Positions 3,226 to 59,380 of a stretch of DNA of 64,000 nt are shown here, in pieces. Position 1 is the stretch's first letter; each line of letters opens with the position of its first letter. The stretch covers positions 3,303 to 67,302 of IMG/VR virus record IMGVR_UViG_2529292906_000009; one strand, given 5' to 3'. The notes beneath the pieces are model-generated. The model was not told the DNA's origin. It was given only the letters and a program-made list of their open reading frames with translations, and made no database searches. The translations under genes and the position numbers were made by a program. This DNA comes from a virus (Duplodnaviria; Heunggongvirae; Uroviricota; Caudoviricetes).

Positions 3226-3446
3226 TATCGGTTAACCAGTTCCTTGTTGGTGGAGTCCAGGGTGTCAAACAGGGATGCAAATTCAGCATCCAGCGCCGCT
3301 TTTTTGTAGGCTTCGAAAGTAGCCTTGCTGACAATTACTGCTGGCTCACGGCCTCTGCGGGTGATTTCAACCTCTTCCCCGGCTTCAACATTGTTGAGCA
3401 CTTCAGAAAGGTTGCCACGCGCGGTACGGAAGTTAATGGATTGCAT
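3225..3446 (-). CDS. phd: Phd antitoxin
   Basis: 73-aa product [32 protein letters not shown]... recalled as P1 Phd; immediately upstream of doc. Confidence 0.95.
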
Positions 3447-52159: not shown

Positions 52160-52460
52160 GCCTCGTAAGTTGATAAACAACCTGCGACCCGCTGTCAAAC
52201 AGGTGGCAGGACGTGACAGGGTTGACAGACTGGCACTTACGAAACCAGCAGGCCGAAGCCTCCCCATCACGCCCCACCATAATTCGGGCGTAACGTGGTT
52301 TTACGGACACAAAAATACCGCAATATCGGAAATGTGCGGTTGTCCGCGTAAGTATTCAGGCTGTCAAACCTGGTCGCAGAATTTGCTGCGACGGCGGAAC
52401 TATAAGCCTGAACGATTAAAAGGTCAATATGATGCGAAAAGATAGCATTCGTGACTTAAA
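52160..52460 (-). ncRNA. Region expected to encode a c4-like antisense immunity RNA and its targets; exact gene not delimited
   Basis: Leader of icd/ant contains repeated GTTTGACAGC and complementary CTGTCAACC elements and several short hairpins. Confidence 0.3.
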
Positions 52461-52465
52461 AATAC

Positions 52466-52482
52466 AAATTTATTAGAGCATT
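52466..52482 (-). promoter_or_regulatory. C1-operator-like 17-mer (16/17) upstream of the immI-like operon
   Basis: aaatttattagagcatt. Confidence 0.5.
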
Positions 52483-52550
52483 GTTTGTTTAATAAATACA
52501 CAAATGGATCTAATAACCTCTTTTTTTAAAGGCGAAAATATGTACCCTAA

Positions 52551-53225
52551 ATGAGTTATAAGGCAGGTGAGGTTATAATGAGAAAACTATTACTACCGTT
52601 ATTATTTATGGCTGGGACTGTTAATGCAGCATCAAGCGTAAAGGAGATTTGTACCGATTATACGAAATACCTTGGGCACGTTTACGGCTTTGCTGTCAGT
52701 CAAGACGAATCCATGCGCAAGAAGTTACTGTCAGATATGAAACGCCTTAAACTTTCTGAAGCGATGGTGCAGCAAGAACTGTATAAAGTCGCAACCAACG
52801 AAAATGCTAAATATCAATATTCTCGCCTGTTAAATCCCGACGCAAACGAGATCAATCGAAGCTCTTTCGATTATATGGTAAAGGCATGCGAAACCGCTCC
52901 TGATTTTGCTATCCCTAGCTGGGGTGTGCTGGTGGCGAGCAATGCCGTTAATAAAGAAGACGTTGGAAGAAATGGCATTGATTCAATCAGAAACGCCCCG
53001 GGAATGCGCCATCAAAACGTGCAGGGTACGCTTGAAGAGCGGGCCAGGGGGCCGGGTACAAACTCCCCAATGGGAAACCTCTCACCAGAGGAATTGCAAG
53101 AGTATAACCAACGGATGGAGCAGTATGAGAAAGCGGCACGCGAACAAATGGAACAACAAAAGAACGGCTCACTTAATACCTTCCAGCAAGGTTTAAAAGC
53201 GCTTAATTTACCCTATGAATGGTAA
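52551..53225 (+). CDS. Secreted protein, 224 aa, carrying a motif shared with Sit
   Basis: Signal peptide MRKLLLPLLFMAGTVNAASS; IRNAPGMRHQNVQGTLEERARGPGT matches two segments of Sit. Confidence 0.6.
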   Translation: MSYKAGEVIMRKLLLPLLFMAGTVNAASSVKEICTDYTKYLGHVYGFAVSQDESMRKKLLSDMKRLKLSEAMVQQELYKVATNENAKYQYSRLLNPDANEINRSSFDYMVKACETAPDFAIPSWGVLVASNAVNKEDVGRNGIDSIRNAPGMRHQNVQGTLEERARGPGTNSPMGNLSPEELQEYNQRMEQYEKAAREQMEQQKNGSLNTFQQGLKALNLPYEW

Positions 53226-53286
53226 ATATATTATGGATAACCAATTAAAATATTGATAATCGTTAATATCCAAAGGAGATAAATTA

Positions 53287-53763
53287 ATGCGCATCAAACG
53301 ATTTTTTCTAATTCTTGCTTTGCTTACTCCATTTTCATCAATGGCAAATGTAAGCAAATGGTCAACCGGCGAGACTCATGGTGTTCGTTCTTATGCTGTT
53401 TCCAGCAAAGATAATTATACGCTTACATTTGAGTGCGATGTTGGATTTAATAATACGGATCCCAATCAAGTAGGAACACGACTACTCACTCTCATGAAAA
53501 CAGAACCTGGCGGTGAGTCATTTGATGCTAAAAAAGAACAAATAACGCTGAAAGTTGGTGATGATGAATATCCTATCAGTTCTATCGGTTCCTCTGTGGG
53601 TGATAGTTACTGGTATGGTTTTTGGTCAGATACCCCTGATATGGAAGTTAAAACATTCGATGCATACGTAGACGGAAAAAAAATCGCAACATTTACGCTA
53701 CGTAAGGCCGCAGAGCTTTTCAACGCGGCACCTGAAGATGGCTGCCTGAAGCGCGCAAAATGA
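53287..53763 (+). CDS. Secreted protein, 158 aa
   Basis: Signal peptide MRIKRFFLILALLTPFSSMA. Confidence 0.6.
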   Translation: MRIKRFFLILALLTPFSSMANVSKWSTGETHGVRSYAVSSKDNYTLTFECDVGFNNTDPNQVGTRLLTLMKTEPGGESFDAKKEQITLKVGDDEYPISSIGSSVGDSYWYGFWSDTPDMEVKTFDAYVDGKKIATFTLRKAAELFNAAPEDGCLKRAK

Positions 53764-53774
53764 CCTGTCACAAA

Positions 53775-53790
53775 TGACTACTCGTAGAAT
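53775..53790 (+). promoter_or_regulatory. Candidate late promoter TGACTA-N4-TAGAAT
   Basis: Same sequence architecture as 20240-20255; 32 nt upstream of the next ORF; -10 lies in an 11-bp inverted repeat. Confidence 0.45.
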
Positions 53791-53797
53791 CGGTTAA

Positions 53798-54388
<591 letters not shown>

Positions 54389-55024: not shown

Positions 55025-55906
55025 ATGCTTTTACCTCTTTTCCCGCTACCATCGCGGCCAACTGAATTGATCCAGTTCCGTCAGCCAAATATTGCTGATG
55101 CGATGCGTTTCAACTCGATAACACCGGAGGAACAAGAACAACAGACAACGGCGTATTTAAAAGCCTTGCTGGCTGAACCCGCGAAACATGATCCCCTGAC
55201 ATGGACGGCGCAGGACCGGATTACCGCGTTATGGTGGATATTTACCGGCTCCCGTGAAACACCGGTCGAGACATTCACCTACACCTGTAAACATTGCGGT
55301 AAAGAGCATTATTACGATTGCGATATGAATGCTCTGGCTGAAGATATCCAGGTCCTGGAAGTGGAACCTTTCATTGACGATATTGAGGTGTCTGTAGAGG
55401 GAGTACCTTATCAATGGCGTATCGTGCCGCTTGATGGTTGGGCAATGGAAATGCTGGAGATGCGCCGTGCAGCATTGCCACCTGAAGACGACGCGGAATT
55501 CAAAGAAGCGATCGTTGATTTGCGTTTTTGGGAATTCGCTTATCAGTGTGAACTTTATAACGATGTTAGCGGTACTCGTGAAGAGCAGGCTGAGCGTCGT
55601 TATGAAACGATCAAACGGATGGCCATTGATACTGAATTTATGAAGCTGGCGGCACACATCCGGCTGGCTCATGAAAAGCTCGAACATGGTTTACCGTGCT
55701 ACATCGATAAAGGCGAAATGCGTCTTCGTCTCCCGCCGCACAAATGCCCAAACCAGGATACAAAGGAGTCCACAGAGGGTGCGTATACCCGTCTGTGGGT
55801 GCCCTTTCGGGCTACCGACTTCATTCCACAGGTGGGGATTGAAAAGCTATCAGACCTTAGTGTCCAACCTGGTTTTGTATGGGGGTATACCGATTCAGGA
55901 CGCTGA
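55025..55906 (+). CDS. Late morphogenesis protein, 293 aa
   Basis: ORF in track. Confidence 0.55.
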   Translation: MLLPLFPLPSRPTELIQFRQPNIADAMRFNSITPEEQEQQTTAYLKALLAEPAKHDPLTWTAQDRITALWWIFTGSRETPVETFTYTCKHCGKEHYYDCDMNALAEDIQVLEVEPFIDDIEVSVEGVPYQWRIVPLDGWAMEMLEMRRAALPPEDDAEFKEAIVDLRFWEFAYQCELYNDVSGTREEQAERRYETIKRMAIDTEFMKLAAHIRLAHEKLEHGLPCYIDKGEMRLRLPPHKCPNQDTKESTEGAYTRLWVPFRATDFIPQVGIEKLSDLSVQPGFVWGYTDSGR

Positions 55907-55987
55907 AAGGCTCACTGAATCCTATGCGTTTTTCCTGTTGGAGAAACTGGAAGAAAAACTTAAACCGAAGCGGTAGGCGATAAGATC

Positions 55988-58900
55988 ATGGAAAGAAAAA
56001 ACGCCAACATTGACGATGTGATAAGGACGGTTGAAACCGCCAGCGCAAAAGAGCTGGAAGAGCTTGCAGGTATTCGGGAAGCCGTTGAAGATTTGAAAGG
56101 GGGGCGAGTTGCTACAGTTGATCCTGTCTCTCGCAGTGTGTCGGCATTAAATCGCACAATCGAAAATTCCCGGCCAGACTTTGTGGCCAATGCGCCATCA
56201 GTGGACCCTATTGTTGAGGCAATGAAACGGCTTAATTTAGGGGACGTTTCTCGTGTAGTTCAGGAGGATGTTGCTCTACAGGAACCGCAGGCCAAATCAA
56301 CTACGCGAAAGGGTAAAAAACGACGCAAGAAGGCTATAACAGAAGATGTAAAGGCGCAACGGACCGAAGCAGCCGAACACGCTCGCGAAATGTTCGGTCA
56401 AAAAGGCGGTGCGCAAAAAAGCCAAAACCAACGCGATGCGCGTGGTCGTTTTATTGGAAAGTCAGGGAGTAAGGCCGCAGCGGAAGATGCCCGTGCTGAA
56501 CGTGCTGAAAAGGCCTGGCGCAAAGAGGATGATGAGCGTCTAAATGCTGAATCAGGTTTATTAAAAAAACTGTCAAAAGTAGCTGAAGGCATAGGTAACC
56601 CTTCAGAGACTCGTGCCGTCGATGCGTTAGGTTATGCCGTTGCTGGTCCATTGTGGGCAGCAGGGAAGGAGCTTGGCGGGATATCAAAAGAAGTTGGTGG
56701 ATCGCTTAATGGTGCCAGAAAGTCTATTGCCGATGTGATTCGTGGCAATGACGATAACAGCCGTAGAAAAGGTTTTTTTAGGCGTAAATCGCAAAATAGT
56801 GCCGATGTCGTTCAGGTTAACACCCAAAAACGGACGGTTCAGGAACTTCAGGAGCAGACCAGCGAAATTAAAGAGGGCAATGACAAGATTCTCAGCGCCC
56901 TTGATCAGATAGCCAAAAACACCGGGAAAAAGAAGGGCGGCTTGCTGTCCAAACTATTTAGCCTGTTAGGGAAGGGGGACGGTGGCGTCGCGTCGTTGTT
57001 AATGGGGCGTGGCATGCTGAAAAAAGCTGGAGCACTCGCTTTTGGCGCTCTGGGGGCAAAGAAACTTGTAGGGATGCTACGCGGTGGTGGCAAGAAGGCT
57101 CTCGCCCATGAAGGCGGAGATTTGGCTGCCCGGGCAGCAGGTAAACTTGGATTAAAGGCCGTTGGTAAAGGAGCGTTACGCGCAATTCCCCTAGTCGGCA
57201 CAGTGGCTGGAGGTATTTATGATGCGGTAACCGGTTGGAATGATACAGAAGCGCAACGTCGAGCGTTTGGGCTTAAATCAGGACAAGATCCATCATTCCA
57301 GCAAAAAGCCGCTTATACGTTAGCTAATGTTCTTGATATGGGGGGACTGGTATCTGGTATTAGCAGCGCCATTGGTGAGGTTCTCAAATCACTTGGATTT
57401 GAGGATATCGGCAATATGTTGCAATCATTTTCGACGGAAAGTATTGCCCTGGCCATTGATAGTGGGATTACCAACTTAGAAACTTATATTTCTAACCTTG
57501 GCGACACCATTTCTACCAAGTTCGATGATTACACAGCAAAGATTGGTGATGCTGTTTCAGCATGGTTTAGCGATACATCTAATAAGCTGCTTGAAAAGCT
57601 GGATGCCATCAAAGACTTCTTTACTGTCGATAACCTGAAACAGGTTTTCAGTGATGCAATTGATAGTGCAATTGATTTCATTAAGAACCCAGGGAAACAC
57701 ATTAAAGAGGCGGCTGGTAATATTTGGGATGGGGTTAAAAATTTACCCGGTAAAGCATTAGATGCAGCGGTTGATGCCGTTAAAAATACCCCTGCGGCAA
57801 TGATTGTATCAAAAATACCCAATCCGATCGGCGAGGCTAATGCGAAAGAAATCACTCCAGAGTTAAAAGCTCCGGTTAATAGCCACCAGGAGACGTCTAA
57901 TTCTAAAACTGAATCCGATGCCAAACAGAGTAATATTGCTACCCGCGTGATAAATGCGGCACTGGACACGGCGAAAGATAGCAATAAAACAGTAAAACAA
58001 ACTGCCAATCAGATTATCAATGCAAATGCCGTAGAAACGGGCAATAGCGCGTTGCAGAAAATTGATAAAGCTATTGGTCAAAATAGCTCGTCATCATCGT
58101 CGCTTAATACCACTGGCACCAGGAATGACATTCAGAAAGCTGCGGATACCTACAACAATGGCAACTTGGATGTAAAAGTCGGAAGTCTTGGCGCTGAAGG
58201 TAAGGCTAATCTCGATAAGTTGGCTCCGTATTTTGCCGAACTAGAGAATAAATACGGTCTTCCAGAAGGCACTCTTTACGCGATTGCTGCAACTGAATCT
58301 GGTGGTAATCCGTATGCAAAATCCCAAACCGGTGCTCTGGGGATGTTTCAGTTCACGGGGATTGCTCGTGAAGAGACTGGCTTAGCTGAAGGTGAATCGT
58401 TTGATCCTGTGAAATCGGCAGAAGCTGCGGCTCTTCTCATGAGCAAATATCTGAAGCAAGCCAATGGAGACTTAAACGAGGCCATCACTGCATATAATGC
58501 TGGGTTTGGCACTATCAATAAGTGGAAAAAAGGCACAGGTGACTTATCGAAAGAAAACCGTGAGTACGCGATCAAGGTCAATACTCATCGTGCTCGCTAT
58601 TTAGGTGGTGAAATCTATACACCTGGAGCAGGAGCACAGGGTGGGGCGCAATATGGAGTGAGGGGACCACTGCCTGATAACGCTGTTATCGATCAGTCTA
58701 CTGGCCTGGCGTTTACCCCTGGTGATAGCCCGTTTGAGAAAGGCGGTCTGGTAGACAAAATTGGCAATGCTGTTGGCGTTAACGATCTGGTCAACAAATT
58801 CATGAATGGCCGGGGTATGCGTCGGGAAGTCGTTCAGGGAACGCTCGAAGAACGTGCACGAGGGAGGGGGACCGCAACAGCTGCTGGCAATGTGTATGTT

Positions 58901-59380
58901 GATACTCCGATGCCAGTCGAAGAGGCGCGTCCGGTGGCCAGCAACTCAAGTTACTTTGACCAACTCGGCGCACAAATGGGGATTGATGGACTATTCGATA
59001 AACTCCGCAACTCGCCGGGGATGCGGAAAAATAATGCGCCTGAACCAGCCTCCACGTCCCAGGTGACGACTGCCGCCAACGATTTGCAGCAACCAACCGG
59101 TCGTATGCAGATAGACGGGCAGGTTATTAGTGACCTTGGTGGTTCCGGTGCCAAGCCGACAATGCAGTTGGCTGATAATACCGTTTCACTTGATGGTGAA
59201 ACGAAGCGGCTGTTTGCGCAGATGACCTCATTGCTTGCCAGGATTGAGGAGCACACCAAAGACTCGGCGAAAGGCCAGGGAACTGTCGTAAAGGTCAGCA
59301 CGCCTCAGCCGGGCGTTATGCGCACGGTACCACTGTCAATTGATGATCCGTTGATGAATGACTACGCGAGAGTTGATTGA
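55988..59380 (+). CDS. sit: Tape-measure-like injection protein with lytic transglycosylase domain (Sit)
   Basis: 1130 aa; SLT motif AIAATESGGNPYAKSQTGALGMFQF; Gly/Ala-rich repeats. Confidence 0.85.
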   Translation: MERKNANIDDVIRTVETASAKELEELAGIREAVEDLKGGRVATVDPVSRSVSALNRTIENSRPDFVANAPSVDPIVEAMKRLNLGDVSRVVQEDVALQEPQAKSTTRKGKKRRKKAITEDVKAQRTEAAEHAREMFGQKGGAQKSQNQRDARGRFIGKSGSKAAAEDARAERAEKAWRKEDDERLNAESGLLKKLSKVAEGIGNPSETRAVDALGYAVAGPLWAAGKELGGISKEVGGSLNGARKSIADVIRGNDDNSRRKGFFRRKSQNSADVVQVNTQKRTVQELQEQTSEIKEGNDKILSALDQIAKNTGKKKGGLLSKLFSLLGKGDGGVASLLMGRGMLKKAGALAFGALGAKKLVGMLRGGGKKALAHEGGDLAARAAGKLGLKAVGKGALRAIPLVGTVAGGIYDAVTGWNDTEAQRRAFGLKSGQDPSFQQKAAYTLANVLDMGGLVSGISSAIGEVLKSLGFEDIGNMLQSFSTESIALAIDSGITNLETYISNLGDTISTKFDDYTAKIGDAVSAWFSDTSNKLLEKLDAIKDFFTVDNLKQVFSDAIDSAIDFIKNPGKHIKEAAGNIWDGVKNLPGKALDAAVDAVKNTPAAMIVSKIPNPIGEANAKEITPELKAPVNSHQETSNSKTESDAKQSNIATRVINAALDTAKDSNKTVKQTANQIINANAVETGNSALQKIDKAIGQNSSSSSSLNTTGTRNDIQKAADTYNNGNLDVKVGSLGAEGKANLDKLAPYFAELENKYGLPEGTLYAIAATESGGNPYAKSQTGALGMFQFTGIAREETGLAEGESFDPVKSAEAAALLMSKYLKQANGDLNEAITAYNAGFGTINKWKKGTGDLSKENREYAIKVNTHRARYLGGEIYTPGAGAQGGAQYGVRGPLPDNAVIDQSTGLAFTPGDSPFEKGGLVDKIGNAVGVNDLVNKFMNGRGMRREVVQGTLEERARGRGTATAAGNVYVDTPMPVEEARPVASNSSYFDQLGAQMGIDGLFDKLRNSPGMRKNNAPEPASTSQVTTAANDLQQPTGRMQIDGQVISDLGGSGAKPTMQLADNTVSLDGETKRLFAQMTSLLARIEEHTKDSAKGQGTVVKVSTPQPGVMRTVPLSIDDPLMNDYARVD

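Follow-up and report, generated by a model that had tools for sequence, protein, structure and literature searches.

Why should a small secreted protein of a P1-like phage carry a peptide that is otherwise specific to Sit, the phage's tape-measure protein? The question arises from a 64,000-nucleotide stretch of the virus record IMGVR_UViG_2529292906_000009 (positions 3,303 to 67,302, the whole of which is hereafter called the window), which belongs to a P1-like phage (Punavirus). An initial annotation had pointed to a peptide shared by a secreted 224-residue protein and Sit, and the peptides that it named are indeed encoded there: IRNAPGMRHQNVQGTLEERARGPGT in the open reading frame (ORF) at 52551-53225, and GRGMRREVVQGTLEERARGRGT (58808-58873) and LRNSPGMRKNNAPEP (59003-59047) in Sit. 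By its sequence, this ORF is the intact form of P1 SimA, a protein of the sim superimmunity cassette, and we tentatively read it as a periplasmic decoy of Sit.

The sit gene (55988..59380, plus strand) encodes a 1130-residue tape-measure protein with a SLT transglycosylase domain; it matches phrog_2533 over its full length, and PF01464 (SLT) at residues 748-857 (E = 9e-27). When SimA was compared with Sit by BLASTP, the two aligned with 23/47 identities (E = 9e-9), the 32-residue aligned stretch corresponding to nucleotides 52986-53081, and a second copy in Sit, LRNSPGMRKNN, gave a shorter match (E = 0.015). Among all window ORFs of at least 80 residues, Sit was the sole non-self match of the secreted protein (E = 2.6e-7). 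The corresponding PHROG profiles cross-match at the motif as well, phrog_2533 hitting SimA at 8.6e-8 and phrog_3933 hitting Sit at 5e-6. In a six-frame translation of the 64-kb window, the pattern [FILMV].[NS]..GMR has three matches, two of them in Sit and the third in the secreted ORF. The whole 80.7-kb genome of Escherichia phage vB_EcoM-Ro157c2YLVW, the closest sequenced relative for this region (96.8% identity across 52300-53900), has four occurrences, the same three and one in a 28-codon open frame. Apart from Sit, neither the window nor the Ro157c2YLVW genome yielded a virion protein with the motif, and among the real ORFs of that genome SimA and Sit alone have it.

That the codons differ, and that recent DNA duplication is hence not the source of the likeness, had already been proposed in the initial annotation, and the DNA agrees: the motif pair is 59% identical across 96 nucleotides, and the same codon is used at 5/19 identical residues. 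Same-codon counts among identical residues were 5/19, 4/8, 6/17, 4/10 and 6/17, with synonymous sites scrambled in four independent SimA/Sit pairs. Since codons differ in four lineages, we rejected recent duplication or gene conversion, and the peptide is kept at the protein level. The accompanying claim, that selection maintains the peptide, also stands, since besides the scrambled synonymous sites the motif forms a conserved island in a variable region. To judge from these patterns, the shared peptide is under purifying selection in both SimA and Sit.

What, then, is the secreted protein? The gene lies on the plus strand, at 52578..53225 (215 residues) or 52551..53225 (224 residues), and matches phrog_3933 over residues 10-224 (E = 6.3e-137). 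The ATG at 52578 is probably the start, rather than that at 52551, because it is preceded by a GGTGAGG Shine-Dalgarno sequence and is the start used in a 215-residue RefSeq orthologue. The first 57 residues are 88% identical to P1 SimA, a protein of 52 residues that ends soon after the signal peptide and has neither the domain nor the motif described below; this N-terminal identity and the short length of the P1 protein indicate that the gene found intact in the window survives in P1 simA as a truncated remnant. Homologues carry the name "simA domain protein" in the sources. The position agrees as well, since the gene occupies the same slot between c4/immI and LPsit-pmgC as the P1 sim locus, all of whose products likewise have signal peptides. 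This slot holds simA-simB-simC in P1, and full-length simA with a gene for a 158-residue protein in the window. Homology of the 215- or 158-residue protein to P1 SimB or SimC was rejected, as there is no similarity and the proteins fall in different PHROGs. Lytic growth does not require the sim region, which carries the annotation superimmunity; simA-C are non-essential in P1 (PMC10695390). The region is one of the eight hypervariable regions of P1-like phage-plasmids (PMC9603915).

SimA appears to be composed of two parts. A Sec-type signal peptide, MRKLLLPLLFMAGTVNA (52578..52628, plus strand), with predicted cleavage before ASS, has the usual n-h-c pattern and is the sole hydrophobic segment in the protein; this pattern, with ANA followed by (A/S)SS at the cleavage site, is kept in all SimA homologues. 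The secretion signal is plausible. There is no lipobox cysteine in SimA, and no hydrophobic segment other than the signal peptide. The segment that follows (52629..52961, plus strand) is a predicted helical periplasmic domain with two cysteines, C25 and C104, that are invariant in the family alignment and probably form a disulfide. From a shallow family alignment (10-11 sequences, for SimA and Sit alike), AlphaFold2 models residues ~20-125 as all-helical with a predicted local distance difference test score (pLDDT) of ~85-93, whereas residues 130-167, which contain the Sit-like motif IRNAPGMRHQNVQGTLEERARGPGTNSPMGNL (52986..53081, plus strand), fall below 50. The predicted architecture is thus a secreted helical domain of ~110 residues and a flexible tail bearing a peptide otherwise specific to the C-terminal part of Sit. 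A fold search returned no significant structural neighbor for the helical domain. NCBIfam and PADLOC gave no matches and Pfam a single sub-threshold one. Assignment to the PTP-like phytases (PF14566) was rejected, since the match scored 26.5 bits against a cutoff of 27 and covered profile positions 47-132 only; the all-helical predicted fold and the cysteine contexts (ICTDYT and KACETAP), neither of which fits the Cx5R of an HCx5R loop, also speak against it. Two further observations concern the C-terminal end. The 215-residue form finishes with ...LPYEW (53214-53225), an aromatic Y-x-W ending that is missing in other SimA forms; as pure speculation, it recalls the C-terminal signatures that periplasmic PDZ proteases read on outer-membrane proteins. 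Database variants of 205 residues (P0002, P0004, P0007, P0008 and P0016) shift into the +1 frame at 52906-53196 at differing points; they probably reflect sequencing errors or pseudogenes, and not a second product.

The linear motif that the two proteins share reads Phi-x-N-x-x-G-M-R-x-Q, often followed by -x-V-x-G-T-L-x-E-R-A-x-G-x-G, and in Sit it is found just after the transglycosylase domain. Motif 1, FMNGRGMRREVVQGTLEERARGRGTATAAGNV (58799..58894, plus strand), lies ~85 residues past the SLT domain, within the same conserved C-terminal module. Its G-M-R...G..RA.G block is invariant in every Sit orthologue recovered, including those of Salmonella, Klebsiella and Cronobacter and one that is 37-42% identical. 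Sit proteins with a different SLT subtype bear the same block, and the motif therefore does not track the enzyme domain. Motif 2, LFDKLRNSPGMRKNNAPEP (58991..59047, plus strand), consists of the core only and lies in an insertion of ~60 residues (58895-59090, Sit residues ~970-1034) that is found in E. coli P1-type Sit only and is missing from the Sit proteins of Salmonella, Klebsiella and Cronobacter; it exists in two allelic versions, LRNSPGMRKNNAPEP and LINARGMRSNNSPQP. Sit has been called the tape-measure protein (PMC9024508, PMC12810830) and, its C-terminal part included, was not resolved in the cryo-electron microscopy of P1 (PMC12810830). In an AlphaFold model of Sit residues 730-1130 (401 residues), the SLT domain alone is confident, mean pLDDT being 52 and that of the motif region ~30. 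A low-pLDDT motif beside a confident domain, in SimA and Sit alike, is what a short linear motif usually looks like, and the shared peptide is indeed a conserved island within a predicted-disordered, variable region of two unrelated proteins.

How widespread is this arrangement? Across 68 IMG/VR loci (labeled L0xx here), 267 PLSDB plasmids and protein databases, the SimA family is confined to P1-like phage-plasmids of Escherichia, Salmonella, Klebsiella, Shigella and Cronobacter, in which simA lies upstream of pmgC-tub-pmgB-sit, L084 being the exception. Among the PLSDB matches, 263/267 are predicted to be non-mobilizable, and those listed measure ~68-128 kb; a scan of genome contigs yielded four loci only. 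SimA exists in several allelic states: the 52-residue P1 stub, a common form of 163/172 residues with five residues left beyond the motif (...ERARGPGVAP*), the 215/224-residue form of the window, and divergent forms of 176-246 residues. A motif search across P1-family genomes, suggested as a check by the initial annotation, recovered the core in every SimA form that reaches past the N-terminal domain and in all Sit orthologues recovered. In ten diverse SimA proteins the N, G, R and Q of NxxG[MV]RxQ are invariant, and the flanking linker is variable with indels. After the core, two flavors can be distinguished: a Sit motif 1-like extension, xVxGTLxxRAxGxG, in the window protein, P0017, P0018, P0043 and P0045, and QPS...FKxC...C tails, the start of which resembles Sit motif 2. 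The boundaries at which variable tails are joined lie directly after GMRxQ or ...RARGPG. P0045 is the most divergent SimA, with an N-terminal domain only ~30% identical, yet its motif reads ENAPGMRHQAVKGSMAERARGDGT.

A YfjT-like secreted protein is usually encoded next after simA, and the 158-residue protein of the window is 28-61% identical to those of L003, L005, L006, L032 and L047; the copies in L003, L005 and L006 carry a precomputed PF27224 (YfjT) assignment. Sometimes genes for SimC-like or other secreted proteins follow simA instead, and the sim-cassette variants examined encode mainly signal-peptide proteins (SimA, YfjT-like, SimB and SimC-like). In a common variant, found in L032-L044 (for example, L032 7974-10147), a motif-ending SimA of 163/172 residues is followed by a more distant YfjT-like protein of 168 residues and then by a protein of 357 or 394 residues, for which NCBIfam and PADLOC gave no family match.

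The motif seems to be exclusive to these two proteins. An hmmsearch of 1.84 billion (1.84e9) representative proteins returned 14 matches, all of them SimA-family or Sit, the Sit matches arising through the motif alone (64 and 41 bits). No host protein or other phage family with the extended motif was found at the sensitivity of this search, the profile of which spanned 215 positions rather than the motif only, so that weaker motif bearers may have escaped. A motif-only database search (alignment A2) returned three fragments only, owing to its word-index prefilter. There are also lineage coincidences between SimA and Sit, namely GTLEE in the E. coli phages, G.GV in L003 and GSMA in L084/L085, where the two genes lie ~15 kb apart and their codons differ. 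When the comparison was limited to the three lineages in which both proteins have the extended motif, cognate pairing was the best of the six permutations, a weak result, and lineage-specific co-variation of SimA and Sit is suggestive but weak on these sequences.

Taken together, these features lead us to favor, at a confidence slightly short of even, a reading in which SimA would act in the periplasm as an exclusion factor, its Sit-like linear motif competing with incoming Sit or poisoning it. SimA would be exported into the periplasm by its Sec signal peptide, and during infection Sit would be ejected into the periplasm of the cell, where SimA could serve as a superinfection-exclusion factor or protect against lysis from without. 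Its motif would compete with that of Sit for a binding partner during cell-wall passage and DNA delivery, or SimA would cap Sit, and genome entry of P1-like phages would stall. This partner might belong to the host envelope, or be a further part of the Sit conduit, or even the helical domain of SimA itself. Both the exclusion phenotype and the competition for the motif's partner are steps that we infer. A decoy or inhibitor relationship was one of the options raised by the initial annotation, and it is strengthened because the protein proves to be full-length SimA, in the sim superimmunity cassette, and because the motif is universal in both families. With lower confidence, as a possible but doubtful proposal, the motif may mark a docking step of P1-type genome delivery, either on a host envelope component or in assembly of the Sit conduit, against which prophages would have evolved secreted SimA as a decoy.

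Several points weigh against the decoy reading. There is no phenotype on record for SimA, and P1 simA is just a 52-residue remnant. The classical Sim phenotype, reportedly a post-adsorption block by a processed periplasmic protein, is said to have been mapped to an unrelated ORF, now simC. Since simC and not simA holds that phenotype, guilt by association is indirect. A C1 operator-like site upstream makes expression of simA in lysogens uncertain. In Cronobacter phage JK004 and in L005 the SimA/YfjT pair lies inside the tail gene cluster without immI, and in L084 simA lies ~15 kb from sit, beside spike/PAAR-like genes, so that the link to immunity does not hold throughout. Roughly half of the SimA proteins have the core motif only, followed by an unrelated Cys-containing tail. 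When cognate and non-cognate SimA and Sit motifs were compared in six lineages there was no general matching, and the co-variation mentioned above rests mainly on one divergent lineage. Finally, the low pLDDT of the motif regions could reflect the depth of the alignments, not disorder.

The decoy reading has both precedents and differences among known systems. T4 Imm, HK97 gp15, Ltp of TP-J34 and P22 SieA all block genome entry after adsorption and are inner-membrane proteins or lipoproteins, whereas SimA lacks a lipobox and, apart from the signal peptide, any membrane anchor. HK97 gp15 mediates post-adsorption exclusion via the tape-measure protein, as Ltp reportedly does. T4 Imm is an exclusion protein acting on the tape-measure protein (bioRxiv 10.64898/2026.03.06.709160), and P22 SieA excludes via the ejection proteins gp16/gp20 (PMC10883804). 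T4 Spackle, which acts on the gp5 lysozyme, is a further precedent (PMC7677548). A motif shared with its own target is not reported for any of the four. What ties SimA to the tape-measure protein is the shared motif. Exclusion proteins acting on ejected tail proteins are hence a class already known, to which a soluble member that copies a linear motif from its target would add a new variant. Short-linear-motif mimicry, such as viral mimicry of host motifs, offers a second comparison: here too a short conserved peptide lies in a predicted-disordered region of unrelated proteins and is encoded by different codons. The difference is that the mimicked protein would be the injected tail protein of the same or a sibling phage, and that the hmmsearch, at its sensitivity, found no host protein with the motif.

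A related explanation, which we consider unlikely, is that SimA works as Spackle does in T4, its helical domain binding and inhibiting the SLT domain of incoming Sit while the motif gives it a foothold on Sit. Antagonism would in this special case be aimed at the enzyme and not at a docking partner, the motif copying a segment after SLT that is perhaps regulatory. T4 Spackle (gp61.3) is a small, disulfide-bearing helical bundle of the periplasm; it binds the tail lysozyme and neutralizes the muralytic domain of the incoming tail (PMC7677548). In its architecture SimA may resemble Spackle, being a predicted secreted protein with a signal peptide, two conserved cysteines and an N-terminal domain predicted to be helical (helices at 21-120, pLDDT ~90), and its lookalike Sit bears the tail muralytic domain, with motif 1 placed ~85 residues after it in the same conserved module. 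There is, however, no detectable sequence or fold relationship between the two proteins, and Spackle has no segment copied from its target, in contrast to the predicted-disordered tail of SimA, which mimics a motif of Sit.

It is also improbable, in our view, that the motif is a shared recognition or cleavage site, at which a host periplasmic protease, chaperone or isomerase would handle both proteins independently and with no antagonism, for example in the maturation of ejected Sit and in the turnover or processing of SimA. The motif does occupy low-confidence linkers beside folded domains in both proteins, as is typical of processing sites, and a natural form of SimA stops just past it, with variable tails bounded after GMRxQ or ...RARGPG. 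However, among 12 of the 18 matching places on cleavage or processing in a study of the P1 virion proteome, the passages concern the major capsid protein and contain no sign of Sit processing (PMC9024508). Moreover, the extended conservation over 20 residues, with lineage-specific shared substitutions, is more than a protease site usually needs, and the presence of the motif in no other family among the 1.84e9 representatives would be odd for a general host signal.

That SimA and its YfjT-like partner are helpers of the resident phage is quite unlikely. They would in that case serve its own cycle by preparing the envelope, by guiding Sit or by restraining the Sit of adsorbed progeny late in infection, which would suit both the placement of the pair in JK004 and L005, within the tail gene block directly upstream of pmgC-tub-pmgB-sit and without immI, and the maintenance of the pairing across divergent lineages. 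Against this, simA-C are non-essential in P1 (PMC10695390), which infects well with just 52 residues of SimA; the locus is a hypervariable cassette (PMC9603915), as expected of accessory conflict genes; and the simA and yfjT-like genes lie upstream of the late promoter. Lastly, it is very improbable that the likeness is a relic without present function, left behind when part of sit was copied into simA, or part of simA into sit: the two genes are on the same strand, about 5.8 kb apart in a recombination-prone region, but synonymous sites are saturated, the peptide is retained in four lineages, truncation variants keep the motif, and conservation is far stronger in the motif than in its flanks, and stronger than in the N-terminal domain of the most distant member.

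The surroundings of simA follow the P1 plan. Its left neighbor is the immI region, with the C4 antisense RNA and its a1/b1 targets (52199..52405, minus strand; Rfam RF01695, 69.6 bits, and RF03163, 61.2 bits) arranged as in P1, and beyond the C4 RNA, on the strand opposite to simA, lie icd and ant. The C1 repressor operator-like site (52466..52482, minus strand), equivalent to P1 Op51/Oc4, has one mismatch to ATTGCTCTAATAAATTT, lies 96 nucleotides upstream of the likely simA start and agrees in position with the P1 annotation. Allowing at most two mismatches to this consensus, the window contains seven matches (14430, 20196, 30528, 30539, 34061, 50793 and 52466), with 0.03 expected, and those at 30528-30555 form an overlapping inverted pair. 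Downstream of simA, the conserved partner gene encodes the second secreted protein, of 158 residues, which is YfjT-like (53287..53763, plus strand; phrog_3429, E = 1e-80) and also has a signal peptide. Identity to P1 resumes at about nucleotide 53770, just ahead of the equivalent of the P1 late promoter LPsit (53772..53790, plus strand), the right border of the variable sim cassette, and is 100% up to the start of pmgC; LPsit is annotated 32-50 nucleotides upstream of pmgC in P1. Both secreted-protein genes thus lie upstream of this promoter, as the initial annotation had placed them, and pmgC, tub, pmgB and sit follow in that order.

Further observations were made in this part of the genome and in its counterparts. 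An alternative frame (55671-55976, plus strand; +1 relative to pmgB, 55025-55906) overlaps the 3' end of pmgB and stops 12 nucleotides before sit. It is open for ~75-100 codons, and its C-terminal peptide, ..YQTLVS.LVLYGG.P.QDAE.LTE.FAFFL.EKL.EKLKPKR, is kept in divergent P1-like loci; by analogy it looks like a programmed-frameshift extension of PmgB, resembling the tail-assembly-chaperone pairs upstream of tape-measure genes. The JK004 annotation gives only the last 29 codons of this frame, as a separate gene. JK004 (L079 7868-8000) is also without the c4-icd-ant block, its simA coming directly after the tail-tube gene bplB, with a terminator-like hairpin and a C1-operator-like ATTAGAGCAAT between the two. 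L084 (6500-11500) and L085 share a single 94-kb contig (IMGVR_UViG_2871745582_000001) of a distant P1-like element, in which the SimA homologue is next to a PAAR-like spike-tip ORF and further genes that probably belong to the baseplate, followed by genes for a 123-residue secreted protein and a 161-residue membrane protein.

We found no published report of full-length SimA, of a motif common to SimA and Sit, or of motif mimicry by exclusion proteins in a search that lay outside the 2004 P1 genome paper, where a prior mention is possible. The name simA, so far an annotation placeholder since P1 has just a stub, gains a plausible identity. P1 has served for decades as a workhorse of transduction, and a motif of 20-30 residues that every Sit orthologue has, and that recurs in a secreted protein encoded in the sim cassette, is a concrete, mutable handle on how P1 DNA crosses the periplasm and inner membrane. 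If the decoy reading is true, SimA would be the first exclusion protein working by mimicry of a tape-measure linear motif, a soluble mechanism joining the known exclusion strategies, and the motif, used as bait, would directly identify a P1 entry factor. Applications might then follow in the control of P1 transduction, or of how far P1-like phage-plasmids with resistance genes spread.

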